Shown here: in pieces, positions 2,375 to 51,802 of the stretch
Layout: every line of letters starts with the position of its first letter
Position numbering within the stretch: the first letter of the stretch is position 1
IMG/VR virus record: IMGVR_UViG_3300037852_000415
Coordinates: 13,345-77,344 of that record
Length of the DNA stretch: 64,000 bases
DNA from: a virus
Direction: 5' to 3' (one strand)
Notes under the pieces: model-generated
The model's input: only the letters and a program-made list of their open reading frames with translations
The model's database searches: none
What the model was told of the DNA's origin: nothing
Translations under genes and position numbers: made by a program

Positions 2375-2629
2375 ATGAAGCTCGCACCCAGTGTTACGGT
2401 CGGTTTGGCGCAAGCGCCCGCAGCTGGGCAGCCCACAGCGGCTAGCCCCTGGTCTACGGGGTTCGTACCGTTCCTATCCGGCGCTGTGGCGCTGGGTACG
2501 GCGGGGGCCCTCGCGGGGTACTTCATCACGAAGAAGCCTACGCGCGGCGCCGTAGCGGGGGCAGCAATCGGTATTAGCATCCCCCTCGCCGCCCACCTCT
2601 ATTCGGGGCTCAGCGGGAATCAGGGGTAG
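2375..2629 (+). CDS. small membrane protein (VGLAQ motif, two hydrophobic segments)
   Basis: Hydrophobic helices; TAAAGT box 6 nt before ATG. Confidence 0.6.
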   Translation: MKLAPSVTVGLAQAPAAGQPTAASPWSTGFVPFLSGAVALGTAGALAGYFITKKPTRGAVAGAAIGISIPLAAHLYSGLSGNQG

Positions 2630-2632
2630 TCG

Positions 2633-3163
2633 ATGACGGCATCTATCGCCTGCCCCCAGGGCTTCACGCTTCTACCCGACGCCGACGTCACCCCCGCAAT
2701 CAGTGCACGCGCCGTAGCGCTTCTCACGCAGTGGCGGGGGCAACTCGCCGCCGGCACCGCCGTCGTGGGCACCACGCAGAGCGTCGAGTGGACCGGCGAG
2801 ATTCTCTGCGACTATCGCTTCGAGTGGCATCCCCCCGACGCGCAAAACTCAAGTGAGCACACCGGCGTCACCGTCTACTATTGCAAAGGAGCGGTAGCCT
2901 CCCCTTTAGGGCCGAGCTCGGTACCAACCTCGTCGTCGCCGCCGTGTCCTTCGCCGTCGTCGGCAGCGGCCTCGCCCTCGCCGCCTGGGTCCTCCGAAAG
3001 CCCCGCCGAGCCTGGAAACGCCTCAAGCCCGCCGGCTACTACGACTACCGGAAGCGGCGCAAGCACAGGTAGCCCCAGCGCGCCTCGGAGGCCCGTCGTC
3101 GAGGCCATCGACGCCGTCGAGCACGTCGTCGAAGCCATCATCCAAGAAGTGAAGAAGCTCTAA
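2633..3163 (+). CDS. hypothetical protein with P/S-rich linker
   Basis: 176 aa, tightly packed between neighbours. Confidence 0.6.
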   Translation: MTASIACPQGFTLLPDADVTPAISARAVALLTQWRGQLAAGTAVVGTTQSVEWTGEILCDYRFEWHPPDAQNSSEHTGVTVYYCKGAVASPLGPSSVPTSSSPPCPSPSSAAASPSPPGSSESPAEPGNASSPPATTTTGSGASTGSPSAPRRPVVEAIDAVEHVVEAIIQEVKKL

Positions 3164-3249
3164 TGTGGCGCAAGCGCACAGGCGTTGGGTGAGGGCAGAA
3201 GCGCACGCCGGTCGGCGTCGTCGGCGAAGTCGGTTTAGGAGATTCCCCC

Positions 3250-3849
3250 GTGACAGCTCTCGACAACGCAATCGCATCTTTGGCGCAAGCGCAAGCTACG
3301 TGGAACACGTGGATGGGTGGAAGTCTCCCCGGCGACCTGCAGCATGGTGTAGCCGCCTACCAAGCCGCTGACGAAGCCAGCCTCGCTGCCGCCGCCTACG
3401 CCGCCAACCTAGCCCCCGGCACGCCCGCCGCCAACATGGCCCAGGGGAACGCCTTCGCGTGCAGTTCGGCGCGGCTAGCGCTCGATGCCGCGCTAAGCGC
3501 TTGGCTGAACCAATACGGGCAGGATGTCGCCTTCTGGCAGTCGGGGAACTACCGCCAGCAAGCGCAGACGATTCTCTTCGCTCTGGCGCCGGCCACGATT
3601 CAAGCGGCGCAGGCAGCGGTGCCGCCGGCAAGGTTCAATTTCAACTTGCCTAGAAGCAATTGGCAGCAGGGAAGAGTCGTGGCAACGAACCCTCGTAACA
3701 GCCGCGTCGGCGTGGGGCAGACGGCGGCTTCCACCTTCGCCCCCGGGGGCACCGCGACGCCGCTCATCATCTTCTCTCTACTCGGCATCGCTGGGCTAGC
3801 GGCGATGGCAATCATCAGCGAGAAGTTCGCAAGCAAAAAGCAGAGGTAG
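3250..3849 (+). CDS. tail-anchored membrane protein (GVGQ motif, C-terminal TM and basic tail)
   Basis: Ends RVGVGQ...LIIFSLLGIAGLAAMAIISEKFASKKQR. The true start may be ATG 3163 across an in-frame TGA (see findings). Confidence 0.65.
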   Translation: MTALDNAIASLAQAQATWNTWMGGSLPGDLQHGVAAYQAADEASLAAAAYAANLAPGTPAANMAQGNAFACSSARLALDAALSAWLNQYGQDVAFWQSGNYRQQAQTILFALAPATIQAAQAAVPPARFNFNLPRSNWQQGRVVATNPRNSRVGVGQTAASTFAPGGTATPLIIFSLLGIAGLAAMAIISEKFASKKQR

Positions 3850-3851
3850 CT

Positions 3852-4409: not shown

Positions 4410-4580
4410 CGCGGCACTCTGCGTCGGCTGCGCTGGCTGGCAAGCGACGGCGCTCAACACTGCGAAGACGTGGGCTAAAACTGGAAGCCTCTACAGAAGC
4501 CAGCATACGCATGTCGGCATCCGCCCCAGCTTCGATTCAGGGGTAGCTGTCGAAGTGCGCGTCACTACCGACAAGATGCC

Positions 4581-5563: not shown

Positions 5564-5564
5564 G

Positions 5565-15430: not shown

Positions 15431-17821
15431 GTGCGCCTAGCTCTCATAGCCGGCATCGCCGCGGCTCTCGAAGAGCCCGGCATAAGCCAACAGCCGATAG
15501 CGCCCGACGTAGCCGTTGTCGTAGCGTCTGTCGGCGAAGACTTCGCCGGCTCGCTGGCCGCAGATGAAGCTCCCGGCGTCGTCGCTGTCGTCGTTGACAT
15601 CGCGGCTGCTTACGCAACCGTACCGGAAGACTTCGCCGGCTCTCTACCTCGTGAAGAGCCCCCTGGCGCAACGGCGACAGTCGCCCCCGACGTACCGTCC
15701 GCGCCCACCGCGCCGGAGGACTTCGCCGGAAGCCTTCCCCTCGAAGAGCCGCCAAGCATCGCAGCACCGGCGAGCGCCGATGTCTCTTTCTTCAGCGTAC
15801 CGCAGGCGCCCGAAGACTTCGCCGGCTCCTTGCCGCTCGAGGAGAACGGGTTCATCTCGCTGCCGCCGGCTGTCGACATCTTCGGCGCCCCGCCGCCGCA
15901 GCAAGAAGACTTCGTTGCGCCTGTTGCTGCCCTCGTCGCCGAAGACGTCTTCGCCGTCGCGCCAGCATCGCTCGACGTCGCATCGCCGCAACCGCCACAA
16001 GCTGAAGACTTCCCCGGCGCTGCCACGGGGCTCGAGGAGAATGCCTTCGTCGCTTTCACACCGGCTGTCGACATCTGGCTTACACCCTCTATCGATGAAG
16101 GCTTCTGGGGCGCGTACTCTTCTGAAGAGAACGGCTTCGTCTCGCCGCCTATCGGCGTGCAGCTCGACTTCACCATTGTCACGCCGTCTGTCGACGAGGG
16201 CTTCTGGGGCGCCTATTCGAGCGAAGAGCCCGCCGCGGCTACGGCAATCGTCGTAGACGTCATCGTTGTCACGCCGAGCGGCGGCGAAGACTTCGGCGGC
16301 GCGCATCCGACAGAGGAGACGTCGCCGCTTCAAACAACTATCGCAGACATCTGGTATCCGCAAGCGCCTGTCGCTGAAGACTTCGCGGGCAGTCTGCCGC
16401 TCGAGGAGTTGGGGAGTACGGCAATAGGCGCTGCCCCCGACGCGCCCACCGCCCTCAGCGCAGCGTCTGAAGAATTCGGTGGGGCGCACCCAACAGAAGA
16501 GCAGCCCGGTGCCGCCGCGCAAGTCGACTTCGTCTTCTTCGCTTCGCTACCGGCGCAGCGAGAAGACTTCGCCGGCAGCGCGGTGTTCGGGGGCGAAGAG
16601 ACCTCTACCCCCGCCATCGCGCCCTTCATCGACATTCTTCCCGCGCTCCCGACGATGTCGGAGGAGGTCTTTGCCGGAAGCGCGCCCTTCGGGGGCGAAG
16701 AGACTTCTACGCCTGCGATTGCGCCTTTCGTCGCCGACGCTCAACTGCCCGCGGCGCCCAGCGCCGAGGAGTTCGGCGGCGCTCACCCCACTGAGGAGCA
16801 GCCCGGCGCAGTAGTGATAGTAGACATCTTGCCGCTACTGCAAGCGGCACCGCAACAGGAGGACTTCGCCGGAAGCCTTCCGTTTGAGGAGGCTACGTCG
16901 ATACCGCCGCTCTCTGTAGAGGCGCCTTGGCTCGGTATCGCCGTAGGCGTTAGTGAAGACTTTGCGGGAAGCTTGCCGCAAGAGGAATCGACTAGCCCCA
17001 CTGTCACCTACGTGCTTCTCGAGCCCCAATCGTCGCTAGCTGCGCCAGAAGACTTCGCCGGAAGCGCGCCTATCGAAGAGGTACACGGCGAACCTAACGC
17101 TCCTCTTTTCATTCAGCGCGTCGTACCCCCGTGGTTGACAATCAGCACCCCCGAGGAATCGCCGCCAACTCCGGTGACGCCCCCGACACCACCGTACGTG
17201 CCGGTGTACGTGCCGCCCGTGCCCCAAACAGGCGGAGGCGGGGGCGCTGGGGCGCTCGGCTTCGGGCCCCCGGCGGTGCCCGTAGCGCCGCAGTGTGACT
17301 ACGCTCTCTTGCACGATCCGAATGCCGCCGAAGTGAAGGCGATTGCCGCAGGCGTCGTTGAACACTTCTTTGATCCCAAAGGGGGCTTCTCGCTCGTCAT
17401 CACCGCAGACGACGGTACGCGCTACTTCTATGCGAAGCTCGGGTGCTACGTCGGGAAGTCGGGGCGGCGCGTGAAACCCGGTGAAGTCGTCGCCAAGATG
17501 AAAGGGCCGGCAGTGCCTACAGTGCAGCTGCCCCCCAAGCCGGCGGTCGGTTTGGAAGCTTTAGCGCTGCCTGAGGCGCCGAAGCCTACGGTGGTGGTGC
17601 CTATCTACGTAGCCCCCGCGCCTGCGCCTGCGCCTGTGCCCGCACCGATTCCGGCTCCTATGCCGCCTGCGCCATTGGCGAAGCCGCAGAGTATCGTGCC
17701 GGCGCTCATCATCACGGGGCTCGTGGCGACGGGCCTCGTGCTCGTAGTCGCGCTTGTACTCGACGACAAGCCTAAGCGTAAACGCGGCAAGAAGAAGCGA
17801 AGGCGCAGGCTAAGGCGTTAG
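15431..17821 (+). CDS. acidic repeat protein with inactive M23-like domain, C-terminal TM and poly-basic tail
   Basis: 17 EDFAGxxxxEE-type repeats; AIAAGVV..GG..LVI..DG.RYFYAKL..GRRVKPGEVVA; TM then KPKRKRGKKKRRRRLRR. Confidence 0.8.
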   Translation: MRLALIAGIAAALEEPGISQQPIAPDVAVVVASVGEDFAGSLAADEAPGVVAVVVDIAAAYATVPEDFAGSLPREEPPGATATVAPDVPSAPTAPEDFAGSLPLEEPPSIAAPASADVSFFSVPQAPEDFAGSLPLEENGFISLPPAVDIFGAPPPQQEDFVAPVAALVAEDVFAVAPASLDVASPQPPQAEDFPGAATGLEENAFVAFTPAVDIWLTPSIDEGFWGAYSSEENGFVSPPIGVQLDFTIVTPSVDEGFWGAYSSEEPAAATAIVVDVIVVTPSGGEDFGGAHPTEETSPLQTTIADIWYPQAPVAEDFAGSLPLEELGSTAIGAAPDAPTALSAASEEFGGAHPTEEQPGAAAQVDFVFFASLPAQREDFAGSAVFGGEETSTPAIAPFIDILPALPTMSEEVFAGSAPFGGEETSTPAIAPFVADAQLPAAPSAEEFGGAHPTEEQPGAVVIVDILPLLQAAPQQEDFAGSLPFEEATSIPPLSVEAPWLGIAVGVSEDFAGSLPQEESTSPTVTYVLLEPQSSLAAPEDFAGSAPIEEVHGEPNAPLFIQRVVPPWLTISTPEESPPTPVTPPTPPYVPVYVPPVPQTGGGGGAGALGFGPPAVPVAPQCDYALLHDPNAAEVKAIAAGVVEHFFDPKGGFSLVITADDGTRYFYAKLGCYVGKSGRRVKPGEVVAKMKGPAVPTVQLPPKPAVGLEALALPEAPKPTVVVPIYVAPAPAPAPVPAPIPAPMPPAPLAKPQSIVPALIITGLVATGLVLVVALVLDDKPKRKRGKKKRRRRLRR
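15536..17080 (+). repeat. 17 imperfect coding repeats, about 31 aa period
   Basis: Recurrent GAAGACTTCGCCGG-type cores encoding EDFAG/EEFGG/EGFWG...EE. Confidence 0.9.
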
Positions 17822-17923
17822 GTAGTGCCCCAGCGCCCACGTGCCGTACGCGACTGCGGCGACAGCGAGCGCGAAGAGCAGGAGCTCGATGCTGATATGC
17901 AGCTTCGGCGACGAGGGCTTCAC
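17810..17923 (-). CDS. 37-aa membrane peptide (below ORF-track cutoff)
   Basis: MKPSSPKLHISIELLLFALAVAAVAYGTWALGHYLTP; TAGTG overlap with the upstream gene. Confidence 0.45.
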   Translation of the reverse strand: MKPSSPKLHISIELLLFALAVAAVAYGTWALGHYLTP

Positions 17924-18474
17924 TAGATTGCGCCGTAGAGCAACGTATGGAGTGTGCCGGCAGTCGATTGAATCAGCCCGCTACCGACGCCGCCGGGCGC
18001 CGTGTTGCCCGGAATAGACGATACGTACATCGACACGACCTGGCTGAGCGAGTCGGTAATCTGCTCGGAGCCGTTGGCAATCCACACGACCCAGAACGGA
18101 GCATCTGCGGGAGGAACGGGAAATCCCATCGAGGCGGGCAGCGCGGGGCCGGCCTGACCGTTGGTGATAAGCCCCGCCAGCGCGGTGGCCTGCGCCTGCG
18201 TCTGCACCTCGGCGATGTACATATACCCGGCTTGCGTCGAGTGGTAGGTGCCGGAGGCGTCGGGAGTCACCTTGGTCCACGTGAGGCCCGGGAATGGATT
18301 GGGGGGCGGGGGCTGAGGAGTCGGAGGCGGAGGCGTAGGAGGTGTCGGCGCCGGATTGGGGCTCGGCGTCGAGCCCTTCGAGCCCCCGGCGAGCGCGACG
18401 CCGCCAATCAGCGCCGCTGCCGCCGCGAGCCCGCCGGCAACCCACCACACACGCGGATCTGTCTTCTTCGCCAT
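17923..18474 (-). CDS. N-terminally anchored membrane protein with Pro-rich stalk
   Basis: MAKK..WWVAGGLAAAAALIGGVALA, then poly-Pro; AGGAGG RBS. Confidence 0.7.
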   Translation of the reverse strand: MAKKTDPRVWWVAGGLAAAAALIGGVALAGGSKGSTPSPNPAPTPPTPPPPTPQPPPPNPFPGLTWTKVTPDASGTYHSTQAGYMYIAEVQTQAQATALAGLITNGQAGPALPASMGFPVPPADAPFWVVWIANGSEQITDSLSQVVSMYVSSIPGNTAPGGVGSGLIQSTAGTLHTLLYGAI

Positions 18475-18488
18475 CGTCTTCTAGCCTC

Positions 18489-18929: not shown

Positions 18930-18977
18930 GGCTTTCGACAGATTAGCATGTAGCGTCGCGGTGGTATACTGAGCCTC

Positions 18978-31442: not shown

Positions 31443-32447
31443 ATGGCTCGAGTACCTGTGGTCTACGAGGTTCCGGCTCAAGAGTGCCCGGCGGGCGGCG
31501 GCTGCCCGCATAGCCACCCCTCGAGTGTGCCGACGCTCCCGTGCCCTACGTGCGGCGCCGAGGACTACGTACCTAAGGGTCCCGACGGTAAGCCCGTGGG
31601 CAATAAGACGCCTTCCTACTACGACGCCAAGCGCGAGGCGCAGAAGCACAACGGCTACGTCGAGTACGTCGACGAGAAGCGCGGCGCCGAGGCGCTACGG
31701 CGCAAGACGGTTCGCCTCAAGTGGCATCGTGATAAGAGTGACGGGCTCTATGCGGTAGGCGCCCTCGGGCGCTACAGCATCCACCGCCCCGAGCGCGTCA
31801 AGAGGAGTGCCGGCGTCTATCGGTGGGTGATTACGCTCGGTGGCTCGATGTTGCCGAAGAGCTTCGACGAGATCGCCAAGGCGAAGGCGTATGCCCAGCG
31901 CTACGACATGAAGGCGCCTTCGGTGCCGCAAGCGCCTGACTTGCCGGCGCCCTACGCGATGCCGCGCCCCCCCGACTTGCCCGGCTGCGCCCCTTTCACG
32001 ACCACCACGCGCGACGAGGCGAAGTTCTCGGCGTGCATGGCGCTCGCGCAGCAGATCGGGCCTATTACGACGCCGACGGCTGTCTACAAGCTCCTGAAAG
32101 ACTACTGCGTTCGACAGGACCAGGAGGTGTTCCTAGTCGTCAGCCTCGACCTGCACGGCCACTTACGCGGTATAGACGAGGTCGCCAAAGGACAGCGAGA
32201 CCGCGTAAGCGTAGGCGTAGCGGATGTTATCCGTGCCGCACTCGATCGGGGCGCGAAGGGATTCATCGTTTGCCATACACACCCAAGCGGGAAAGCGCGT
32301 CCATCGCAAGCGGACAGAGACTTGACGAGGGCAATCATCAAAGCGCGTGCGCCATTCGGCAGTGATTGTGTGTTCGTAGACCACATAGTTCTAGGGCTGA
32401 ACGAGTTCGCCTCAATCAAGCGTCGCAAGCTCTTTAGGGCACGCTAA
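31443..32447 (+). CDS. JAB/MPN (RadC-like) domain protein with long N-terminal extension
   Basis: QEVF....LD, HTHPSG...PS.AD..LT, DHIV. Confidence 0.85.
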   Translation: MARVPVVYEVPAQECPAGGGCPHSHPSSVPTLPCPTCGAEDYVPKGPDGKPVGNKTPSYYDAKREAQKHNGYVEYVDEKRGAEALRRKTVRLKWHRDKSDGLYAVGALGRYSIHRPERVKRSAGVYRWVITLGGSMLPKSFDEIAKAKAYAQRYDMKAPSVPQAPDLPAPYAMPRPPDLPGCAPFTTTTRDEAKFSACMALAQQIGPITTPTAVYKLLKDYCVRQDQEVFLVVSLDLHGHLRGIDEVAKGQRDRVSVGVADVIRAALDRGAKGFIVCHTHPSGKARPSQADRDLTRAIIKARAPFGSDCVFVDHIVLGLNEFASIKRRKLFRAR

Positions 32448-33929: not shown

Positions 33930-35459
33930 ATGGCTACAGCAGAAAACGACGGCCTGGAGGCCTTCGAGGAGTCGAGTATCGAGGAAGAGACTGAAGAGGA
34001 AGAGGCTGGTGAAGAAGAGCCCGAAGAGGTGCCCGCCCCGCCCGCGCCTGTGCACCTCGCCAAGACTAAGACGCCCGGCGCGGCTGCCGATAAGAAGCGA
34101 AAGCCCCGCAACGACAAGGGCGGCACCCACGCTGCGCCCGGTGAGGGGTGGACCAATCGCGAGGCAGACCTCATGTGGCCCGAGATGCTTCAACGCATCG
34201 GGCGGCTCAATCCCCCGCGTACGCCGTACGACCTCAGCATCCAAGTGATTCGGTTGTCGCCATCAGCGGTGACGTTGCCGAACCAGATCGACGGCGCCTA
34301 CGTCGTCGGCGACAAGCGCCGTTCACCGGGTGACGCGCTCAGGGAAGCCGTCATCGACTACTACCACCTGCCCGCCAACTGCGGCCCCGAAGAGTACGAG
34401 CTACGTTTCGTATGGAAGCAGACCGGGCGCGTCTACGGCAGGGGGAAGCTCACTCTCCCCTCCTGCGAAGAGATCATCGGCTACAGGCAGGCTGCCGAGC
34501 GCATGCGGCGCCGCCCCAGACAGGCTCACGGAGGCATGGCGAATCCGGCGCTCGACGATGCGCCGTACGATGAATTCGAGCCGCCCCAGGCGCCGCGCAG
34601 GACCCCCGTAGGCTACGGCGCTGCGCCGCCGCAAGCGCCGGTGTTTGCGCCTGCGCCGTCGGCGTCGGCTGCGGACGCCTCTGGCGAGGTTGGCTACCTG
34701 CGACAGCAAGTAGGCTACTTGAGCGGGCAGCTGCAGCAGCTGATGGGTCTCATGGGCAAGCCTGGCTTCGGCGCCGCGCCGCCGTCGACGGCGCCAACCG
34801 GTGTCGCTGCAGCGCCGATGCCTGCGCCGCAAGCGCCGCCTGCCTCCTTAGAGGAGGCGATTGAGCGCGCCGCCGAGCGCATCCTAGCGCGCGCCGGCAT
34901 CAAGCCGGGTATGCCGGGTGTCGGCACCGCCGGTACGCCCCCGCCTACCCCCGCAAGTGCCACTAACGAGCTTCACGCCGGCATCAACGCCTTCCGCACC
35001 TTCGTCGGTTTGGGCAAAGAGCTCCGACATCTCGCGAAGGAATTGAACAACGACTTCGGCGAAGGCGCCGGGGGCGCCGACGAAGAGCCGCAGCAGCTCA
35101 TAGCGGAGCCCGTCGTCACTCCACCTAGCCCCGAGGATAAGCTCCCTTTCGAGGTGGTGCCCATTCCCGAGACAGACTTCCTCGGACACCCCGCAAAGTA
35201 CGCCATCGATAAGGAGACGGGCGGCTTCTCGAGGGAGGGCTTCTTCATGGCGAACCCCGGTCTCGCTGAAAAAGCCATCGAAGTTGGCGGCAAGCTTGTC
35301 GAGGCGCTTAGCCGTATCGGTAAGGGCGGGGCCCCCCAGCAAGCTGCGGCGGAAGTCGTGCGCGAGATTCCTAGGGGTGCAGTAGACGCAGGCGTCGCCG
35401 GCAACGGTGGCGGCAGTAACGATGGCGGTGAAGTGCCGGACGGTAACGGAGGACTCTAG
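33930..35459 (+). CDS. large hypothetical protein (acidic N-terminus, P/A-rich, GYGAAP/GFGAAP)
   Basis: AAGGAG RBS, 509 aa. Confidence 0.7.
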   Translation: MATAENDGLEAFEESSIEEETEEEEAGEEEPEEVPAPPAPVHLAKTKTPGAAADKKRKPRNDKGGTHAAPGEGWTNREADLMWPEMLQRIGRLNPPRTPYDLSIQVIRLSPSAVTLPNQIDGAYVVGDKRRSPGDALREAVIDYYHLPANCGPEEYELRFVWKQTGRVYGRGKLTLPSCEEIIGYRQAAERMRRRPRQAHGGMANPALDDAPYDEFEPPQAPRRTPVGYGAAPPQAPVFAPAPSASAADASGEVGYLRQQVGYLSGQLQQLMGLMGKPGFGAAPPSTAPTGVAAAPMPAPQAPPASLEEAIERAAERILARAGIKPGMPGVGTAGTPPPTPASATNELHAGINAFRTFVGLGKELRHLAKELNNDFGEGAGGADEEPQQLIAEPVVTPPSPEDKLPFEVVPIPETDFLGHPAKYAIDKETGGFSREGFFMANPGLAEKAIEVGGKLVEALSRIGKGGAPQQAAAEVVREIPRGAVDAGVAGNGGGSNDGGEVPDGNGGL

Positions 35460-37250: not shown

Positions 37251-38375
37251 ATGCGCAGCGCGCGTGACGCAGAGCTGATGCTGATGCCCCACTTGCGGCG
37301 CGGCGTCGGGCAGCTTTCAGACTCGGCGCAGATTCAAAGCGTACTCGGAGGCATCCCAGGCGTCAGCCAAGGCCAAGTCAATCAAGCCATTACGACGTAC
37401 AACGGGCTAACTTCGGCGGCGACCGGGAGCATCCTCGGCATCCTCAATGGCGGCCCCATCAACGCCGCTACGCTTGGGCCGGTTGTGGCGTCTGGGATGG
37501 CTTTGTTAGGCGCTACGGCGCCCGAGATTGCTGCAGTGGCGATCGGCTTGTCGGTGCTCGGCGCTTTCGCCTCCTTGTTCGCCCCGGCGCCTCAGAACTG
37601 TAGTTGGCGTGTCGCCAACAAGTGTTTCAACGCCAACCGCCCTTCGGGCCCCGGCGACCCAGCGTGGATGACGTGGGGTCAATTCGCCCAGAACCCGCTC
37701 GACGTCGCGGCGGCGTTCCCTTGGTACTACGTGCAGGCGTGCGACCTCGGCGCCATCAACTCGACGCCTACGCCATCACCGCAGCTGCAGTTTCTGAAGA
37801 CGTACTACGCTGCGTGGCAAGCGAACGCCGAGTATCTCATCAACGGGTATCAGGCGATTGACGATTGCGCCCTCCTGACGATTGTGGCTAACGCGTGGAA
37901 CAACGGGCACGACGGGAGCTCTACGTATACATTCCAACCGACGCCCGCTTTCGGTCTTCAATCTGAGTGGGATTCGAGCTTCCCTGGCGGCATTCCCCGT
38001 GCGGTGCAGTGCCCCGGAGACCAAAACCTGCCCCCATTCGTTCCCGGCGCGCCGCCGACAGCTAGGAGCTACGTCGGCCTCTTGATGGATGGTGACATCA
38101 CCGCTACGCGATGCAGCGCCCAGGGGCTTCCCATCAACACGGGCGGGGCGTTCTTGACGAGCCACTTCATCCTGCCCCCCAAGGGCCCATCGGTGCCATC
38201 GACGACGTCAACAGGCGCGAAGGTTGCACTCGGAGGCGCCGCAGTCGTTGGCGCCGGGCTGTTGGGGATTGGCTTGTTGGCGCTTATCAAGGGGTGGGGC
38301 TTCGGTAAGGCAGTCGACTACGTGTGGGGTAAGACGGGCAAACCCGCCATCGCCTACGTCAAGAAACACGTCTAA
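37251..38375 (+). CDS. membrane virion protein (RRGVGQ leader, C-terminal TM)
   Basis: Hydrophobic segments, Cys-containing domain. Confidence 0.7.
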   Translation: MRSARDAELMLMPHLRRGVGQLSDSAQIQSVLGGIPGVSQGQVNQAITTYNGLTSAATGSILGILNGGPINAATLGPVVASGMALLGATAPEIAAVAIGLSVLGAFASLFAPAPQNCSWRVANKCFNANRPSGPGDPAWMTWGQFAQNPLDVAAAFPWYYVQACDLGAINSTPTPSPQLQFLKTYYAAWQANAEYLINGYQAIDDCALLTIVANAWNNGHDGSSTYTFQPTPAFGLQSEWDSSFPGGIPRAVQCPGDQNLPPFVPGAPPTARSYVGLLMDGDITATRCSAQGLPINTGGAFLTSHFILPPKGPSVPSTTSTGAKVALGGAAVVGAGLLGIGLLALIKGWGFGKAVDYVWGKTGKPAIAYVKKHV

Positions 38376-40132: not shown

Positions 40133-40648
40133 ATGGGCTGCTGCTCCAACTGTGACAAAGGCCTGCCGTGCGCCGACGGTAATGGCGACCTGAACCCCGC
40201 TGTAGCTGCCGGTATCGCGGGCAGCGGTATGGGCGCTACCGCCATCGAGATGCAGGCCCTGCTAAAGTCTCGAGCGATGTCGCCGGCCCAGCGCGCGATG
40301 CAGGGCCACGTGCTGATTCAGCAGATGATGAGCGGTCGGCCGATCCGAGGTTTCGGCCAAGCCGGGGCCGTGCCCGCGAAGACGTGCTGCGGTGGCGGCA
40401 CCATTATCGACGCGAACGGCAACTGCGTCCCCGCCTGTGTGAGCTCGGTGGGTGGCGCCGCCGGCAGCGTCGCCGCTAGCATACCGTCGGTAAACGGCCT
40501 CTGCCCCCAAGGCTTCCAGCTCGCGCCCCAGGGCATCGCCGACTACTGGTGCCAGGCGTCGACTACGGCGAAGGTCGCTGTCGTTGCCGGCGGCGTCGGC
40601 GTCGTCGGCCTGGGCGCCTGGCTCTTGATGCGCAAGAAGAGGAAGTAG
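40133..40648 (+). CDS. Cys-rich tail-anchored virion protein (GMGA, GFGQ)
   Basis: AAGGAG RBS; TM then RKKRK. Confidence 0.7.
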   Translation: MGCCSNCDKGLPCADGNGDLNPAVAAGIAGSGMGATAIEMQALLKSRAMSPAQRAMQGHVLIQQMMSGRPIRGFGQAGAVPAKTCCGGGTIIDANGNCVPACVSSVGGAAGSVAASIPSVNGLCPQGFQLAPQGIADYWCQASTTAKVAVVAGGVGVVGLGAWLLMRKKRK

Positions 40649-41086
40649 ATGCCCCCCACCAACCAAGGGCGCGCGCTCGTCGCGCGCATGTACCGTGGGC
40701 TCGGTCAAGCCTCGAACGCGGCGCTGCCCCCGGGTACCGTAGCGAACCCCACCTACGACCCTAACGCCGCCGCCGGTACGCACAACGCGTTTACGTGGGT
40801 GTCACAAGTCAGTGGGCTCAACGACGGCGACTGTTCGCAGAGCGCAGTCATCGACCCCATCACCGGCCAGTGCGCGAATCTCTGCCCCGACAACTCTCGG
40901 CCAGCGAACGGCTGCCCGCCCGCGACAGGCATTCCGCTCTGGTGGGGCCTCCTCCCCATGTGGCAGAAGGTTGCCGTCGGCGCGGGCGGCGCGGCGGTGG
41001 TGCTCGGCGGCGGATACATGCTGCTTCACAAGAGTAAGCCCGCCGCGCGACACGCGAAACGCCGCGCTAAGCATCGCAGAAGGTAG
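40649..41086 (+). CDS. Cys-rich tail-anchored virion protein (RGLGQ)
   Basis: TM then a basic tail. Confidence 0.7.
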   Translation: MPPTNQGRALVARMYRGLGQASNAALPPGTVANPTYDPNAAAGTHNAFTWVSQVSGLNDGDCSQSAVIDPITGQCANLCPDNSRPANGCPPATGIPLWWGLLPMWQKVAVGAGGAAVVLGGGYMLLHKSKPAARHAKRRAKHRRR

Positions 41087-41089
41087 CAA

Positions 41090-41602
41090 GTGGATAGGCG
41101 CCTCGCTTGGGCACTTGGCGCAGTCGCGGTCGCAGGTGCGGCCGTCGGAGCGCTAATCTTAGCGAGCGGCAGCAAGCCATCTGCGCCGAGCGGCGGCGTC
41201 ACGCCGGCACCGGGCGGCGGCAATGGGGGCTCCGGTGTGAAACCCTCCTCCGACCCGTGGGGCGACCTGAAGACGCAGATTCAGATTCTCGACTTGAGCG
41301 CGAATAACCTCCGCGCCGACACGTTCGTCAATCACCCTACCGTGTGGGCGGTGTGGGTGGATGCGGGTACCGTCATGGACGACGCTAACAACCTGATGAC
41401 GAATCCCGCCGGGCAGCCGCTAAAGCCCCCGGCATCCGCGGCGGGCCTCGCGACGCTCAACACCGACGTCACGAAGCTCTTTCAAGATTCCGCCGCGGCA
41501 TCAACGGCTACATTGGTGCCTGCGTCGACGAAGGTGCTCGTCGCGGCTGTTGCGGCGGCGACGCTGGGCGTGTCGCGAGCCGCGTCTACCGCTGGTGTCT
41601 AA
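41090..41602 (+). CDS. N-terminally anchored membrane protein
   Basis: MDRRLAWALGAVAVAGAAVGALILA. Confidence 0.65.
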   Translation: MDRRLAWALGAVAVAGAAVGALILASGSKPSAPSGGVTPAPGGGNGGSGVKPSSDPWGDLKTQIQILDLSANNLRADTFVNHPTVWAVWVDAGTVMDDANNLMTNPAGQPLKPPASAAGLATLNTDVTKLFQDSAAASTATLVPASTKVLVAAVAAATLGVSRAASTAGV

Positions 41603-43194: not shown

Positions 43195-43650
43195 ATGGGA
43201 CGGCCCCCGAAAACACCTGAGGAGCATGCCGCACGTAACGCGTACAGACGAGCACACTACGCTGCGCACAAAGATGAGATAAACGCTCGGCGGCGCGCCC
43301 CTGAGGCACTTGAGCGATCGCGGGCCGCCGGCCGCGCGCGGTACGCTGCACACAGAGACGACCCCGGCTTCAAAGAAGAGAATAGGGCTAGGGCGCGTGC
43401 GTACGTGGGGGCGCACAAAGACGATCCCGAATTCATCCTAATCTGTTCTCGCTTGATGGCTGTGGGTGGTGGACGTGGAGGGCGCGGCAACAATACCGCT
43501 CACGTAGACCACGATCATGTTACCGGTGAAGTGCGCGGGCTCTTGTGCCACGCATGCAATATAGGCATCGGAGGGTTGAGAGACAGCATCGCGCTACTGA
43601 AGAACGCCGTCGCGTACCTAGAGAGCGGGCCATCATGCGTACTGGCGTAG
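43195..43650 (+). CDS. endonuclease VII domain protein, possibly degenerate
   Basis: HVDHDHVTGEVRGLLCHACNIGIG; first CxxC pair incomplete. Confidence 0.75.
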   Translation: MGRPPKTPEEHAARNAYRRAHYAAHKDEINARRRAPEALERSRAAGRARYAAHRDDPGFKEENRARARAYVGAHKDDPEFILICSRLMAVGGGRGGRGNNTAHVDHDHVTGEVRGLLCHACNIGIGGLRDSIALLKNAVAYLESGPSCVLA

Positions 43651-45281
43651 GAAGCGATTCGTTCAATCCTGGCGTCAACAGGATGCGCGCAGCCGGCGTG
43701 AAGGTCGACGTGCAACCTTACAGCGACGGCCCCGCGGGTGTCGGCCAGAGCCTCGACGTCATCGCCCAGAAGATTCGCGAAGGCGCTGCTGACAGTGACC
43801 TGCAGGGATGGAGTGCCGAGAAGCTTCGCGCCGCCGGGTTCGACGGGCGCGCCAAGACGCCGACGGTACAGCAGCTCTGCGAAGTTCTTCTGGCCGCCTA
43901 TCGGCAGGAAGTAATCTATGCCAGTGATCCGGCGCGCACCGAGCAGATCCAATCGCCCGCCGCGACATTGTGCTTACGCCCGGGGCTGTGCCTTCGACGT
44001 GGTGACTGCGACGACGGAGTCGTCGCTCTCGGCGCGGCCATTCTGTCGTACGCTGTGCCCGTGCGGGTTATAAAACAGCCATACGCTCAGCAAGAGCACG
44101 TATTGCTGGGCGTCATCGACGACAGCGGCACAGTCTTGTACGTCGATACCGCTAACAACCTGTATAAGGTAGGGCCTGGCGGTTCACCGGGGTGTCCGCC
44201 TAAGGTGCCTGGCGAAACCTATGTCGACCCCATGAATAGCGCCCCTGCCGGCCCCGCCGGCACCTCTGGCGCCCAGCTTATCACCCTCGGAGCCTCGCCC
44301 AAGATGCAATCTCAATCGCAGTCGTCTCAAGCCGTCTATAGGCACAACAGATGGTGGCGCCTCAGCGCCGGCTGCGGCGGCAACCTCGAAGTTCACGAAG
44401 GCGGCAACTGGTACAGAGTCGGCACCGGCCAGGCCCCCGCGGCGCCGAGCGACTTCGCAGCTCTGAAGGCGGCGCAGGATGCGCAGTGGAGCCAGGTGTC
44501 GGCGCAGATTCAAGCCTGCAGCTCTGGATTGACGGCATCTTCGCAGTCGGCGTTCGCCTCCGACTATGCCACGTGGCAAGCCTTTGCGGCGTCGACTACG
44601 GCGACGGCGGACGACTACACGCGCCTTCGCGCCTTCAACAGCATCCTTCAGGTGTGGCAGCTGAAGGCGCAGGTCTACTGCAACGCCGCATCGAACCCCG
44701 GCGGCGCCGTCGGCGTCGGCGCGATTCACGTGCCGGGCATCAACTGCAACATCGACGACTTGAAGGGGCAGAAGTTGCGCCTCCTCGGGCCCTGGACGCA
44801 GCTCGGAAACGACGTCGACAACTGCCCGCTCTGCAAAGACGACCGAAGCCTCTGCGCCGCGACGAGCGCGTATCCCAACGGGGCCCCGAACGGGATGACG
44901 CTGACGCAGAAAACCGACTTCCTCCAAGACTTCCTCACGTTTCAGAACTGGTACAACGCCGACTTCCCCATCTGCGACGCCGATGCCGAGATAAACCAGG
45001 GGCGCGATCTAGAGCAGCGCTACGACAGGTGGCGGAAGATTGTCACCCAATTCTGCACCGGCGCGAATCTGCCGGGGGTGCAGTCGCCTGACTTGCCCCC
45101 GCTCCGCAATGACGACCCCCGAAGCCCCAACTACGTACCCCCGGCCGGCCCCGGCGACATCGCAGCAAGCATCGCGAAGAGTGTCGCCGTCGTCGGCGTC
45201 GCAGCCGCCGCGATCTACGGTATGTACATCATCGCCCCGGCGGCGCGGAACCTCTTCGATAGAGTCACCAAGAAGAAGTAG
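43635..45281 (+). CDS. transglutaminase-like (Cys-His-Asp) enzyme fused to two repeated helical domains and a C-terminal TM
   Basis: GDCDD (Cys 44007), EHV (His 44097), YVD (Asp 44145); start ATG 43635. Confidence 0.8.
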   Translation: MRTGVGSDSFNPGVNRMRAAGVKVDVQPYSDGPAGVGQSLDVIAQKIREGAADSDLQGWSAEKLRAAGFDGRAKTPTVQQLCEVLLAAYRQEVIYASDPARTEQIQSPAATLCLRPGLCLRRGDCDDGVVALGAAILSYAVPVRVIKQPYAQQEHVLLGVIDDSGTVLYVDTANNLYKVGPGGSPGCPPKVPGETYVDPMNSAPAGPAGTSGAQLITLGASPKMQSQSQSSQAVYRHNRWWRLSAGCGGNLEVHEGGNWYRVGTGQAPAAPSDFAALKAAQDAQWSQVSAQIQACSSGLTASSQSAFASDYATWQAFAASTTATADDYTRLRAFNSILQVWQLKAQVYCNAASNPGGAVGVGAIHVPGINCNIDDLKGQKLRLLGPWTQLGNDVDNCPLCKDDRSLCAATSAYPNGAPNGMTLTQKTDFLQDFLTFQNWYNADFPICDADAEINQGRDLEQRYDRWRKIVTQFCTGANLPGVQSPDLPPLRNDDPRSPNYVPPAGPGDIAASIAKSVAVVGVAAAAIYGMYIIAPAARNLFDRVTKKK

Positions 45282-47529: not shown

Positions 47530-48813
47530 ATGGCTGGTCGTCTCGCAAAACCCACTCAGAAGAACCCGCGGCTGACGCTCGGCGTCGGCCAGGGCACGCC
47601 CAACTCGGACATCGTCAACCTCTTCAAGAGCGCGACGAGCTGCCCCATCTACGCTTTGCCGACGGTGGCGAAGCGCCAGTGGGAGTTCGAGGGCCCGGTG
47701 TCGCAGGCCAACGTTCAGCGAAGCCTCGGCAACCAGATCGACATCCTCGGCGGCAGCAACGCCACGGCGCCCGACAACGTCTACCAGACCGACGGGCTCA
47801 TCAACGGTGAATTCCAGACGTACGTCCTCGCGTGCGCCGTCGGAATGCACCTCGAGCCGGAACCCATGTGCTGGACGGCGCAGGGCAACGCGATTCTCGT
47901 GCCGGGCTCGTCCATCCCGATGCCGAACAGCCCCGACGACTACACCGTGCTCGACCAGAGCAACTTGGTGTACGGCGGTGCGACGCAGTCTGTGCCTCAG
48001 GTGCAGACGAGCATGCGGCGTGCGGTGCTCGAGTGGGGCTGGTGGGCGAACTACGCCTTCTGGCACCTCGTCCGCGGGTACAACCTCCGTTGGACCTACG
48101 GCTCCCTCATCAACATCATGGACGAGCAGCTGCGCGACACCGCGTACACGCCGCCCAACGCTCAGGAAGGCTCTGCCTCTTCGAGCCAGGTTGCTATCTG
48201 CGACTTCGTGCAGCGCACGAACCAGCGGTACATCTCGACGCTCGCCGCGACGCGCATGTTCCTCTGGCAGAACCTCGTTCGCGTCGGCACCCTCGGCGCG
48301 ACGACCACGTCGACCGAGACGCAGGGCAAGTTCCGGCCCTTCGACGACGTCCTCGTGGACGCCACCTACGGAGGCATGGATCTGCGAAGCATGCTGCGTA
48401 ACAACAGCGAGTTCCGCACCCTCGAGCAGCCGTACATCCTGAAGCCGGGCGTTCCGCCGGGCCTCATCCTCGAAGCGAACGGCGACAACGCCGAGCAGGC
48501 GCTCTTCCAGGCGCAGTTCGACGCGTCGGGCGGCTTCACGGGCGCGACCCCGCCTTACTCGTTGACCCCCTTCGGCACGCTCATCGCGAACGGCGCCGGC
48601 CAGGTGTTCGACGAGCTCTCGGCGGACAACGTCGATGTTCTCCAGCAGGTCAACACCGAGCACTACGTGTTCAAGGGCGGAACGGCGCTCATGAGCATGG
48701 AGATCAAGGGCTACGAGATCACCGAGCCCCTCGCGGACCAGATCAAGAGCGACCCCACGCTCCAGGCTCAGATCTGCTCCGAGTGCGGCTGCGCGGTCGG
48801 CTGGGCCTCGTAA
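47530..48813 (+). CDS. candidate major capsid protein (single-jelly-roll-like, with insertions)
   Basis: Strong AGGAAGG RBS, near-exclusive C/G third positions, flanking hairpins; NGEFQTYVLACAVGMHL / FRTLEQPYILKPG..GLIL / MEIKGYE strand pattern. Confidence 0.55.
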   Translation: MAGRLAKPTQKNPRLTLGVGQGTPNSDIVNLFKSATSCPIYALPTVAKRQWEFEGPVSQANVQRSLGNQIDILGGSNATAPDNVYQTDGLINGEFQTYVLACAVGMHLEPEPMCWTAQGNAILVPGSSIPMPNSPDDYTVLDQSNLVYGGATQSVPQVQTSMRRAVLEWGWWANYAFWHLVRGYNLRWTYGSLINIMDEQLRDTAYTPPNAQEGSASSSQVAICDFVQRTNQRYISTLAATRMFLWQNLVRVGTLGATTTSTETQGKFRPFDDVLVDATYGGMDLRSMLRNNSEFRTLEQPYILKPGVPPGLILEANGDNAEQALFQAQFDASGGFTGATPPYSLTPFGTLIANGAGQVFDELSADNVDVLQQVNTEHYVFKGGTALMSMEIKGYEITEPLADQIKSDPTLQAQICSECGCAVGWAS

Positions 48814-48894: not shown

Positions 48895-48910
48895 ACGAAA
48901 GGCGTGAGAG

Positions 48911-49549
48911 ATGGCTGACGAGACGAAAGAGCTGAAGGAAGGCGTCGGAAGCTGCGGTAACCCCAGCCAGTGCTGCGGGCCCGCCGTCGAGGACGTCCGC
49001 CAGATGCTTGCGCTCGGCTCACCGAGACTCGCGCTAGCGAAAGCGCTCGGCGTGCCCCTCGCACCCTGGGCGTTCACCATCACTGCCACGTTCACCAGCG
49101 TCAGCCAGAACCTCGTCGCCGACCAGGGCCAAAACGTGAAGCTGGTGCAGGACATCATCGTCGATGACATCCGCTACCAGATCGACACGCAAGTGACGCC
49201 GAGCGGCGACTTCGACAACTTCAATTACGCCTGCTTCGCACAACAGAGCAATATCGAAGCGAACCTCCGCGTCAGCGGCGCGCCCCGATACGACGTGTAC
49301 TCGCAGTTCACGCCGCTCGCGATGATTCGCCGGCCCACGCAAGGGTGGGTTCTCCAGCAGACGAACGGCGTCTTGATGTCCTTCCAGAGCAACGTTCCCC
49401 TTCAGAATGTGCCCATCAAGATCTCCTTCGTCTTCGAGTGCCGGACCACGCACTGGGCGAAGCTCATCGACATGAAGCAGCGCGAAGCGGTGCAGATGCT
49501 CTGCAAGCTCGGGTACGACGTCGGGTCTTACACAGAGCTCTACTGCTAA
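48911..49549 (+). CDS. candidate second capsid protein (single-jelly-roll-like)
   Basis: FTITATF..KLVQDIIVDDIRY..ANLRVSG..PL..WVL..GVLMSF..IKISFVFEC alternating strands. Confidence 0.5.
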   Translation: MADETKELKEGVGSCGNPSQCCGPAVEDVRQMLALGSPRLALAKALGVPLAPWAFTITATFTSVSQNLVADQGQNVKLVQDIIVDDIRYQIDTQVTPSGDFDNFNYACFAQQSNIEANLRVSGAPRYDVYSQFTPLAMIRRPTQGWVLQQTNGVLMSFQSNVPLQNVPIKISFVFECRTTHWAKLIDMKQREAVQMLCKLGYDVGSYTELYC

Positions 49550-49563
49550 GGGAGGTGCCCTAG

Positions 49564-50457
49564 ATGGCGCCTCGCCAAAAAGAGTACCAGAGCTGGGGCA
49601 TCGACCAGAGCGCTGCGTTCGTCGAGACGGACCCGTTTGGCGGGCTCTCGAGCCTCGGCGTCAAGGTACCGACACTCTCGACAGCCGCGCTGCCCTCGGC
49701 GAATCCGCCGACGCTCGGGTACAACAGTCGCTACCTCTTTCACCTCGCGAGCTTCCACGTGCCCGAGAGTGGCGGGTGTGCGCGCATCACCGGCTACCGG
49801 CTGAACGTCCAGATCTGGGCGTTGCAGTCTGGCGAGGGCGGCAACCGGTACGTCAAGCAAACCGTCTACGACCCCGCCTTCAGCTTCCAAGACGGCAACT
49901 GGAGCTGGCACCTGCGCTTCATCCCCGATGTCGGGATGAACGGCATCAGAGTGAGCCCCCCTCTGCCCGTCAATCAGAATGACGGCACGACGGCAAACCT
50001 CGATGGCACTGCGTACCGATGGGCTGACACGCCCGCGATTCTCTATGAGAACATGCTCGTCGCCGCCGGAGATCCCTTCTACGTCGATCTGTTGGATTAC
50101 ACACCCCCGAATAGCGGCAGGCCTTGGGGAGAGCCCCTCGCCGGCATGGGCACATTCTACGGCGTGAGCACGCCTTGGAATACGCACGGCGCATGGAGCG
50201 CGCTCGATATCGAGTGCGATGCGCCAGGCACCTACGCCCTCTTCTGCAGCGTTAGGCAAACGAATAGCTCTACGCGAACCCCGCTGACGCCGCCTGGCAC
50301 CTTCTTCGGTAACGGTCTCTCCGCCGAAGAGCAGTTCCTCTTGAACTTCCCCGGCGCCTGGATCGGCTCTGTTGGGGGGAGCCTCGTAGTCACCTCCGAC
50401 GACGGCGACTGCGGCGACCAGTTCGGCAATCGTGAGAAGGAAGGGCCCTGCTCCTAA
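49564..50457 (+). CDS. candidate penton/minor capsid protein
   Basis: SFHVPESG..RITGY pattern; GGGAGG RBS; position in the module. Confidence 0.4.
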   Translation: MAPRQKEYQSWGIDQSAAFVETDPFGGLSSLGVKVPTLSTAALPSANPPTLGYNSRYLFHLASFHVPESGGCARITGYRLNVQIWALQSGEGGNRYVKQTVYDPAFSFQDGNWSWHLRFIPDVGMNGIRVSPPLPVNQNDGTTANLDGTAYRWADTPAILYENMLVAAGDPFYVDLLDYTPPNSGRPWGEPLAGMGTFYGVSTPWNTHGAWSALDIECDAPGTYALFCSVRQTNSSTRTPLTPPGTFFGNGLSAEEQFLLNFPGAWIGSVGGSLVVTSDDGDCGDQFGNREKEGPCS

Positions 50458-50963
50458 TGGCTACTTCGGCATCGATGATTCGACACTCTGAGGGCGTTGC
50501 CGGCGGGCAAGCGGCCCCACCTGGCAGTGGCGGCGGGCAATCCGCGCGCCCCGCGCCCGGGAGCGACGGGGACATCGCGACGCGCCCCGGTGACGCAGGC
50601 GGCGGTGGGCATTCGACCCACGGCGCTACGCAGCAAGGCGCGCCTCTAGTCGCTAAGCGCCTCCACGGCGTCGGGCAGACAGCACCTGCAAGTGCCGACG
50701 CGCTTTTGCAGCAAGCGCAAAACCAGCTAGCGGCCGCGGCCGCCGCCCTCGTAGCCGGTGACGCCACTACGGCGGCTACCGACGTCGGCAACGCCGTCAC
50801 ACTCGTGGGCCAAGCAAGAGCCGCGATGGCGGCCGCCCCGCCGCCTTCAGGTGTAACTGTCTCCGGCGGTGCCGCCATCGGCATCGCGGCCGGTAGCGCT
50901 CTCTTGGGGGGTGTGGCAGGATGGATGCTGAAGGGTTCAGGGGTACTGAAAGGTAAGCGATAG
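50457..50963 (+). CDS. tail-anchored virion protein (HGVGQ)
   Basis: C-terminal TM then KGKR. Confidence 0.65.
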   Translation: MATSASMIRHSEGVAGGQAAPPGSGGGQSARPAPGSDGDIATRPGDAGGGGHSTHGATQQGAPLVAKRLHGVGQTAPASADALLQQAQNQLAAAAAALVAGDATTAATDVGNAVTLVGQARAAMAAAPPPSGVTVSGGAAIGIAAGSALLGGVAGWMLKGSGVLKGKR

Positions 50964-50965
50964 TC

Positions 50966-51802
50966 ATGGCATCGGCTAATTGGCAGGAAACTCGCAGCGT
51001 GCCGGTGAAGACCGAGCACGGCAACCCCCTTGTCATCGGCATGGGCGCCTCGCCAGTGCAAGCGCACGGGCGTGAGTGGTACCGCGCACCGTCGGGCGCC
51101 GTCTTCAGCCGCCCCGTCGCCGGCCTCGGCAGCGCGGTAGCGCTCAACCAGACCCGGATGCGTAACGCCGTGAATCTGCGGATGCAGCGCGCCTACACGA
51201 CGAGCCCGCGCGGCGTGTCCCTCAGGCACCCACACGTCGGCATGGGGCAGGCTGCGATCTTCAGCGACAGCTGCGGCAACACCCTCTACAGCGACGGCTC
51301 GGCGACGTGCGCCGACGGTAGCTCCTACCCCTGCACGCCCTGCAACGGCATGACGGTGGTTCAAGCCGCGGCGGCTGCCGGCATCACCCCTAGCGGCGGT
51401 GGCGGTGGTGGCGGTGGTATCAGCCTTCAGGCGGCTGCTGCGGCTGCCCTCGCGGCCCTCAACGCCGACCCCAACTACTGCGCCGATGTCGCCGTCGCTG
51501 GAAGCGCCGTGAATACCGCCGTCCACAACTTCAAGTCGGCGTGGAACGCGGCTAACCCTACGACCCCCGTGCCCATCAACACCGGCAACTACGAGCCTTC
51601 GGTAGCGGCGGCGCTGAACAGCCTCGTAGCCGGCGCCCCCGCTGGCTGCGGCGGTGGCGTGAGCCCCGGGCCTGCCCCCGCCCCCGGCCCTTCGCCGAGC
51701 CCGGCGCCGGATACCATGTGGATCGTCGGCGGCGCGGTGGCCGCTGCGGCCATCGTGGGCGGCGCGCTCTACTACAAGAAGAAGCACGGTAGGCGCCGGT
51801 AG
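50966..51802 (+). CDS. tail-anchored virion protein with PG-binding-like domain (GMGA, GLGS, GMGQ)
   Basis: VHNFKSAWN...TGNYEPSVAAALN resembles PG_binding_1; TM then KKKHGRRR. Confidence 0.65.
   Translation: MASANWQETRSVPVKTEHGNPLVIGMGASPVQAHGREWYRAPSGAVFSRPVAGLGSAVALNQTRMRNAVNLRMQRAYTTSPRGVSLRHPHVGMGQAAIFSDSCGNTLYSDGSATCADGSSYPCTPCNGMTVVQAAAAAGITPSGGGGGGGGISLQAAAAAALAALNADPNYCADVAVAGSAVNTAVHNFKSAWNAANPTTPVPINTGNYEPSVAAALNSLVAGAPAGCGGGVSPGPAPAPGPSPSPAPDTMWIVGGAVAAAAIVGGALYYKKKHGRRR

Follow-up and report, generated by a model that had tools for sequence, protein, structure and literature searches.

A glycine motif and a transglutaminase-fold enzyme in the virion module of a prokaryotic virus lineage: a candidate maturation system

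Background

The motif-directed maturation proteases of tailed phages and herpesviruses are serine enzymes, and those of adenoviruses, nucleocytoplasmic large DNA viruses and poxviruses are clan CE cysteine enzymes. We examined a stretch of 64,000 nucleotides of viral DNA (IMG/VR record IMGVR_UViG_3300037852_000415, positions 13,345 to 77,344), referred to throughout as the window, in which a short glycine motif recurs in putative virion proteins and a transglutaminase-fold cysteine enzyme (43635-45281) is encoded among them. The motif, G-Phi-G-[A/Q/S] with Phi a hydrophobic residue, may be the site at which this enzyme cleaves virion precursors.

The adenovirus protease adenain cuts at (M/I/L)-X-G-G↓X and (M/I/L)-X-G-X↓G, the African swine fever virus protease pS273R at G-G↓X, and vaccinia virus I7L at A-G↓X (arrows mark the cut). 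Gly or small residues are common cut sites of papain-like and related cysteine proteases whose pockets are narrow, among them these three, the C39 peptidases and the papain-like protease PLpro, and cysteine proteases of this broad class often choose Gly or small residues at P1 and P2. The system proposed here resembles adenain, pS273R and I7L in that one viral cysteine protease would trim many virion precursors at a short Gly motif. As with adenain, a hydrophobic residue lies upstream: the local pattern is [V/I/L]-G-Phi-G-[A/S/Q], with V, I or L at position -1 in 59 of 63 homologs of the capsid candidate described below. The leaders that would be removed are basic, like adenoviral core precursors. 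In the enzyme of the window, Cys125 precedes His155 and Asp171, the order of the transglutaminase/papain clan, whereas clan CE enzymes have His before Cys and an Ulp1-like fold; because catalytic order and fold differ, the enzyme is not a clan CE member. It also differs from adenain-type proteases in being membrane-anchored and in having a prokaryotic host, and its cleavage activity is putative.

The closest enzymatic relatives are bacterial transglutaminase-like cysteine proteases (BTLCPs) such as LapG, a transglutaminase-fold, sequence-specific endoprotease for small residues that cuts the adhesin LapA at a di-alanine motif. The viral enzyme has the same fold class (VIA Z 8.2 with Legionella LapG, 127 residues aligned) and a Cys-His-Asp triad. 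Sequence similarity is at the superfamily level only, and LapG is a soluble periplasmic regulator with one substrate, whereas the viral enzyme is tail-anchored and has many putative substrates bearing a G-Phi-G motif. C39 peptidases offer a further likeness, that of a papain-like Cys protease taking off an N-terminal leader that ends in Gly and a small residue. These domains are fused to ATP-binding cassette exporters and recognise a longer leader helix, in the double-glycine leaders of bacteriocins; here there was no C39 match in Pfam, and the putative substrates are virion proteins, not exported peptides. Prohead proteases likewise trim many head proteins at a short common motif in maturation (L/I-x-E for T4 gp21, S/A/G-x-E for phiKZ gp175), but these are serine proteases resembling herpesvirus assemblin and belong with HK97-fold capsids, in contrast to the Cys-His-Asp transglutaminase fold and the lack of an HK97 profile match here. 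Our literature searches found neither a transglutaminase-fold maturation protease nor a G-x-G tag for prokaryotic viruses, and no motif-directed maturation system for non-HK97 prokaryotic viruses. To our knowledge, no transglutaminase-fold enzyme has been described as a motif-directed virion maturation protease.

Results

Motif sites and their carriers

The original prediction, made from the sequence of the window, listed eight G-[VLMF]-G-Q sites in unrelated proteins and reported that replication and metabolic proteins lacked the motif. All eight were found exactly as listed (3709, 37302, 40349, 40697, 43737, 47581, 50667 and 51239), in plausible genes, and none falls in a replication or metabolic gene. 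The listed variants were also present: GLAQ (2402, 39109), GTGQ (44421) and the GVGS, GVGA, GMGA, GLGS, GYGA and GFGA sites. The carriers are not detectably paralogous, with every pairwise BLASTP E-value above 0.06 and no detectable similarity beyond the motif context. Codons vary at synonymous positions among the sites, and the motif is therefore not a DNA repeat. A basic residue lies within four residues upstream in 7/8 sites (binomial p ~0.009). Of the eight sites, roughly half clearly bear out the claim that the motif usually ends a basic leader, and the remainder lie mid-protein.

Seven of the eight G-Phi-G-Q carriers, the enzyme included, have a single C-terminal transmembrane (TM) helix, usually followed by a polybasic tail. 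The following carriers are tail-anchored or otherwise membrane proteins:

40133..40648, + strand: 171-aa Cys-rich tail-anchored membrane protein; GMGA at residue 32 (40226-40237) and GFGQ at residue 73 (40349-40360)
40649..41086, + strand: 145-aa tail-anchored membrane protein with a polybasic C-terminus; leader ...ARMYR, then GLGQ at residue 17 (40697-40708)
50457..50963, + strand: 168-aa tail-anchored membrane protein; GVGQ at residue 71 (50667-50678)
50999..51802, + strand: 267-aa tail-anchored membrane protein; GMGA at residue 14 (51038-51049), GLGS at residue 42 (51122-51133) and GMGQ at residue 81 (51239-51250)
3250..3849, + strand: 199-aa membrane protein outside the main module; GVGQ at residue 154 (3709-3720), 12 residues before the C-terminal TM helix

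The first site (GMGA) of the 50999..51802 protein is kept in two related loci (L002 and L003). Sorting signals of the lipobox, twin-arginine, prepilin and GlyGly-CTERM types were considered and rejected, as no hydrophobic signal segment lies beside the N-terminal sites; the motif adjoins a TM helix only in the 3250 protein.

One architecture is common to at least eight module proteins (in 3250-3849, 40133-41602, 43635-45281 and 50457-51802): an N-terminal part that is soluble or rich in Cys, one C-terminal TM helix and a polybasic tail (for example ...RKKRK or ...KRRAKHRRR), which suggests that the virion has a set of tail-anchored membrane proteins.

Enrichment in the virion module

The exact motif G-[VLMF]-G-Q occurred 8 times against 1.47 expected from per-protein shuffles of this genome, in which Gly makes up 9.3% of residues. 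When the post-hoc choice of pattern was corrected for (4-mers with one degenerate position), 98/100 shuffled proteomes gave an equally extreme pattern, and for that reason the eight-site statistic of this single genome proves nothing. The exact motif was also at chance level in distant loci, the trailing Gln being limited to this genome and its two nearest relatives, with Ala, Ser or Asp elsewhere. It was accordingly replaced by G-Phi-G-[A/Q/S]. What survives of the motif as originally drawn is G-Phi-G followed by a small residue; Gln is only a lineage-specific variant, and Ala is equally common.

The redefined motif was compared with block shuffles of 12 or 24 residues, which keep local composition. 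In the virion module of the window (33-56 kb, limits drawn after the sites were known) 23 sites were found against 5.5 expected, and in the rest of this genome 7 against 7.7 (Fisher odds ratio 7.7, p=1.7e-7). G-[polar]-G, Phi-G-G-[AQS] and G-G-Phi-[AQS], taken as controls, were flat. Enrichment was significant in 7/9 related loci. For complete related genomes the test windows were set in advance as the capsid gene ±10 kb, and enrichment was repeated in three of four (inside/outside odds ratios 6.6-17): inside counts were 19 against 3.3 expected in G004, 14 against 5.5 in G005 and 13 against 3.5 in G003, and outside counts were 3 against 5.9, 5 against 9.4 and 5 against 5.4, respectively. The exception, G002, has its outside sites mostly in collagen-like GATGATGVGATG repeats of fibre proteins; it appears exceptional because such repeats create spurious G-V-G-A tetrapeptides. 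Two unrelated high-GC tailed phages, phiC31 and L5, showed no enrichment in either structural or non-structural genes. Thus the enrichment check proposed with the original prediction failed for the exact Gln motif after post-hoc correction, and the broader motif proved enriched, module-specific and repeated in relatives.

Pooling 228 non-TM sites over nine loci gave the consensus G-[L/V/F]-G-[A/Q/S]-P-P-[D], with a 2-fold excess within the first tenth of proteins. We conclude that the motif is a real, selected short linear motif specific to the virion module.

Two side observations concern these comparisons. The collagen-like proteins of G002 are four large proteins (510-728 aa; L032:5-5609 and L035:634-2166) with GATGATG... 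repeats, and are probably fibres. In loci L007 and L006 a mild excess of Phi-G-G-[AQS] was seen (10 against 5, P ~0.01-0.04; weak statistics), and L007 encodes two adjacent proteins with a common N-terminal ...F-[Q/E]-I-G-G-P-A-G-P... segment; this pattern could be a shifted variant of the motif.

Conservation at leader-domain junctions

Four conserved families carry the motif at junctions or in linkers:

47530..48813, + strand: major capsid protein candidate, 427 aa; 17-residue basic leader, then G18-V-G20-Q (47581-47592) where the folded body begins
48911..49549, + strand: conserved 212-aa capsid-module protein; short leader, then G-V-G-S (48941-48952) directly before the conserved domain
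37278..38375, + strand: 365-aa membrane protein; N-terminal ...RRGVGQ (37302-37313) and a C-terminal TM helix
33930..35459, + strand: 509-aa conserved module protein with an acidic N-terminus and Pro-rich linkers; GYGAAPP (34611-34622) and GFGAAPP (34764-34775)

The capsid candidate has the top codon bias of the genome (G+C at third codon positions 0.91) and at least 188 homologs, every one labelled hypothetical. Across 63 diverse family members (38-79% identity), G18 is invariant and G20 at least 90% conserved, within the local consensus [R/K]-x-[V/I/L]-G-Phi-G-[A/S/Q]. The leader is 12-56 aa long and differs from the mature part in basic content (K+R 23% vs 7%) and in column conservation (majority fraction 0.32 vs 0.62). 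In the structure model of the capsid candidate (mean predicted local distance difference test, pLDDT, 84.7), values are 42-59 up to residue 20 and 85 or more beyond. The residue after the motif at orthologous positions is A in 21, S in 7 and Q in 6 of the 63.

The leaders of the 212-aa family are variable both in length and in sequence. They hold between one and three G-Phi-G elements, typically arranged as ...GLGAPP...G-Phi-G-C..., close before the conserved domain. Among 30 representatives of the 37278 family (at most 50% identity), the junction Gly is present in 25; L, V, M or I precedes it in 23, and D (22) or Q (3) comes after it in 25. The first Gly is lineage-specific, being present in 10/30. 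N-terminal extensions range from 0 to 260 aa, and certain members begin exactly at the junction. Orthologs of the 33930..35459 protein in nine loci have G-Phi-G-A-P-P within the same linker regions. Conservation in homologs, which the original prediction had named as a check, thus extends to the junction glycines of the capsid, 212-aa and 37278 families and not to the Gln.

Foldseek comparison of the capsid model with the PDB returned nothing under E=0.01 and no HK97 match. In a VIA-wide comparison the top rows were HCIV-1 (Z 4.1), HHIV-2 (3.7), SPV1 (3.6) and P23-77 VP17/VP16 (3.0), all single-jelly-roll capsid proteins of internal-membrane viruses, at scores below the tool's meaningful level. 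ESM Atlas gave sub-threshold 'capsid-like' leads only (scores up to 0.78). On the model, the capsid candidate looks jelly-roll-like, at low Z.

The transglutaminase-fold enzyme

43635..45281, + strand: transglutaminase-fold cysteine-protease-like enzyme, 548 aa; catalytic domain at approximately residues 30-217
44007-44009, 44097-44099 and 44145-44147: predicted triad of Cys125, His155 and Asp171, respectively
C-terminus of the enzyme: TM helix from approximately residue 508, then a basic tail
G-x-G sites of the enzyme itself: residues 4, 35, 263 and 360

The assignment of this protein to the transglutaminase-like superfamily, part of the original prediction, was upheld by ortholog matches to PF01841, an invariant Cys-His-Asp triad and fold matches. 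PF01841 was matched by 6/8 orthologs (E 1.7e-6 to 5.5e-3), two of them above the 23-bit cutoff: P0007 (26.7 bits), to which the enzyme of the window aligns at E=9e-41, and the L008 ortholog (28.7 bits). No ortholog matched C5, C57, C63 or C39, PF01841 being the only Pfam family found, and PDB sequence searches with the enzyme and its family profile returned nothing. C125 (within G-D-C-D-D), H155 and D171 are invariant in 11 sequences (27-60% identity). In the enzyme model, helix 125-137 has C125 at its N-terminus, and strands 155-161 and 167-170 carry or adjoin H155 and D171. VIA comparison of model residues 30-217 matched TG2 (Z 10.1, 165 residues aligned), TG3 (10.0), PNGase (9.8), 3kd4 (9.1), LapG and 3isr (8.1), with FXIIIa, Rad4, TglA and PeiP also in the Z 8-10 range. 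A conserved [V/I]-[T/G]-[L/I]-G-[A/K/S] element ends the catalytic domain, and enzymes of close relatives have an N-terminal leader with G-Phi-G.

The enzyme co-occurs with the capsid candidate: its gene adjoins the capsid gene in 10/10 related loci. A complex prediction for the capsid leader and the catalytic domain reached 0.28, the mark being 0.32, and was counted neither for nor against the pairing. Cell-wall hydrolases are encoded elsewhere in the genome (an SLT_3 protein, a GH25-like protein and a weak M23-like candidate, described below), and so the enzyme need not be a lysin.

The ortholog at L007:4897-7200 contains an intein of approximately 380 aa (Hint and LAGLIDADG) exactly between ...R-G-D and C-D-D..., so that the catalytic Cys is the +1 extein residue. 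The position is typical of an essential catalytic site, and we know of no report of inteins in this enzyme class. Taken with the invariant triad, this insertion at the catalytic Cys indicates strong selection on catalysis.

A RadC-like protein of a different protease type lies at the upstream edge of the virion module:

31458..32447, + strand: RadC-like JAB/MPN metalloprotease with an intact JAMM motif (H-x-H-x7-S-x2-D); PF04002 E=1.3e-25

Its N-terminal part of approximately 200 aa is uncharacterised and has Cys/His clusters (CPAGGGCPHSH...CPTC); orthologs are longer (469-646 aa).

Genome, lineage and neighbouring genes

The window is the last 64 kb of a 77,344-bp viral record, with 63% G+C and approximately 127 genes, mostly on the plus strand. 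The source is a prokaryotic virus of an undescribed lineage of approximately 75 kb. The related genomes in IMG/VR are complete, span 73-79 kb and in three cases have direct terminal repeats. Recognisable genes encode a fusion of uracil-DNA glycosylase, exonuclease and PolA, a VapE primase/helicase, a PD-(D/E)XK nuclease, ThyX, RadC-JAB and a tyrosine integrase; a Cpn10 homolog, an SLT-type transglycosylase and a GH25-like hydrolase were also identified. Upstream of the window the record encodes SF1 and SNF2 helicases and tail-fibre or spike-like proteins.

Pfam and PHROGs gave nothing informative for the main virion-module proteins. The 33-56 kb module had no match to a terminase, portal, HK97 capsid, tail tube or prohead protease in these databases, and a scan of approximately 85 proteins found no recognisable terminase, portal, HK97 capsid, tail tube, S78/U35/S80 protease or FtsK-type packaging ATPase; these negatives for the HK97 lineage concern profile matches only, and a missing match is no proof of absence. 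Walker A motifs were confined to replication proteins. When the capsid region was compared with 50,697 phage records by Megablast, nothing matched, and a search for the capsid gene in 185,579 named prokaryote genomes found it on two tiny contigs of metagenome-assembled genomes only (Polyangiaceae and Chloroflexota), which gave no host assignment.

Several neighbouring genes were noted. The virus encodes a GroES/Cpn10 homolog just downstream of the capsid module (52744-53121; PF00166, E=3.8e-15), kept in most related genomes, and beside it an 84-aa gene (52487-52741), which among the small genes of the family is the most strongly conserved (45-70% identity). A single 849-aa protein (23589-26138) combines a uracil-DNA-glycosylase-like domain, a 3'-5' exonuclease and a family A DNA polymerase; in record G001 its homolog is split over three consecutive open reading frames (L017-L019). 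A probable lysis or entry cassette lies at 15431-19616. It consists of an acidic-repeat protein of 796 aa that weakly matches M23 peptidases (15431-17821; E=7.7e-5, under the cutoff), two small TM proteins on the minus strand (17923-18474 and 18489-18929) and a GH25-like hydrolase of the Rv2525c type (18978-19616; E=3.6e-23). An SLT_3 lysozyme-like protein (E=4.9e-26) was also among the scanned reading frames.

Discussion

Because one motif of 4-6 residues recurs in unrelated proteins, at leader-domain junctions and in linkers, a trans-acting reader is required. The leaders look dispensable, since their length varies and they are sometimes absent. A maturation protease with its substrates is the most economical reading of these features and the most likely one. 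The enzyme (Cys125-His155-Asp171) would recognise G-Phi-G-[A/Q/S], often with [R/K]-x-[V/I/L] before it and P-P after it, and would cut at or directly after the second Gly. Leaders would thereby be stripped from capsid and membrane-protein precursors, and the enzyme may also cut itself. Through the common C-terminal TM anchor the enzyme, which is encoded in the middle of the module, and its substrates would share a membrane. Cleavage of the motif, by whatever enzyme, seems to us somewhat probable; that the membrane-anchored transglutaminase-fold enzyme is what cleaves virion precursors there is a proposal that we hold at a little short of evenly balanced.

Several points weigh against this proposal. 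The cleavage itself, the position of the scissile bond and the role of this enzyme as the cutter are all what we infer from reading genes, and enzyme and motif appear tied by co-conservation only, every relative found having both. Two of the related loci, L007 and L006, have weak or no G-Phi-G-[AQS] enrichment. The enzyme of the window itself has no Pfam match, even at E<=1, its model is poor (pLDDT 56.6 overall, 60-85 in the catalytic domain), and the transglutaminase fold also covers PNGase, acyltransferases and pseudomurein isopeptidases. As for self-cleavage, orthologs have GIRRS or GIQKS in place of G-x-G at residue 35, a site that probably belongs to the fold, and sites 263 and 360 are retained in close relatives only. 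Lastly, the RadC-JAB protein at the module edge is a second conserved protease candidate.

The motif might instead be an uncleaved structural or assembly signal, either a Gly hinge or docking element, which as a flexible hinge would let basic N-terminal arms reach membrane or DNA, or a tag for an assembly factor such as the GroES-like protein, with the enzyme serving another purpose. Conservation at junctions suits a hinge equally well, consistently basic leaders suggest a function of their own, and the viral Cpn10 homolog is conserved in relatives. Yet leaders of 0-260 aa with variable sequence, absent in certain homologs, would be unusual for a functional arm, and a motif that turns up in unrelated proteins as well as in linkers mid-protein accords better with one shared trans-acting reader than with separate hinges. 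The conserved protease-fold enzyme within the same module also speaks against this alternative, which we regard as unlikely though the most substantial of the rivals. Rather improbable is cleavage of the motif by the RadC-like JAB metalloprotease or a host enzyme, in which case the transglutaminase-fold protein would be a processed virion component or have another role. JAB/MPN+ enzymes cleave after the C-terminal Gly-Gly of ubiquitin-like proteins, which favours this candidate, as do its intact JAMM motif and its status as a core gene adjoining the module in 4/4 complete relatives; the N-terminal motif of the transglutaminase-fold enzyme in close relatives is likewise substrate-like. However, RadC-like proteins are widespread in phages without such a motif system, this one has no membrane anchor, unlike most carriers, and the intein and triad point to strong selection on transglutaminase-fold catalysis.

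The original prediction had also offered the motif Gln as the acyl donor of a true transglutaminase, forming Gln-Lys isopeptide cross-links between virion proteins. The fold and triad agree with this, as does the Gln after G-Phi-G in this genome and its two closest relatives. Being lineage-specific, however, the Gln disfavours cross-linking: at orthologous sites it is a minority residue in both the capsid and the 37278 families, Ala equals it overall, and G[VLMF]GQ falls to chance in distant loci. We consider this suggestion contradicted by the conservation data and very improbable. Least probable of all is that the motif reflects chance or composition, the proteins being rich in Gly, Ala and Pro and the genome having 63% G+C. 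Such an effect would account for the failure of the eight-site excess under post-hoc correction in this Gly-rich proteome, and for the tetrapeptides generated by collagen-like repeats in the fibre proteins of G002. It does not accord with an enrichment that survives local-composition shuffles, leaves permuted patterns flat, is module-specific and is repeated in independent genomes, nor with the absence of enrichment from two other high-GC phages and the conservation of motif columns at 36-50% protein identity. The chance explanation is effectively refuted.

Returning to the maturation protease, a wider proposal would be that sequence-tagged virion maturation has arisen independently and convergently in a widespread prokaryotic virus lineage of approximately 75 kb, with a jelly-roll-like capsid, many tail-anchored membrane proteins and no terminase, portal or HK97 genes that could be recognised. 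Its virions would mature as those of adenoviruses, poxviruses and African swine fever virus do, with the membrane-anchored transglutaminase-fold enzyme as the protease. We put this forward tentatively, as possible and on balance doubtful. With a capsid family of at least 188 members, all hypothetical, the lineage deserves description. If the maturation reading is true, the system would add a new protease specificity and a further example of convergent virion maturation, and the motif would predict mature N-termini, annotating otherwise unassignable virion proteins over hundreds of metagenomic viral contigs.

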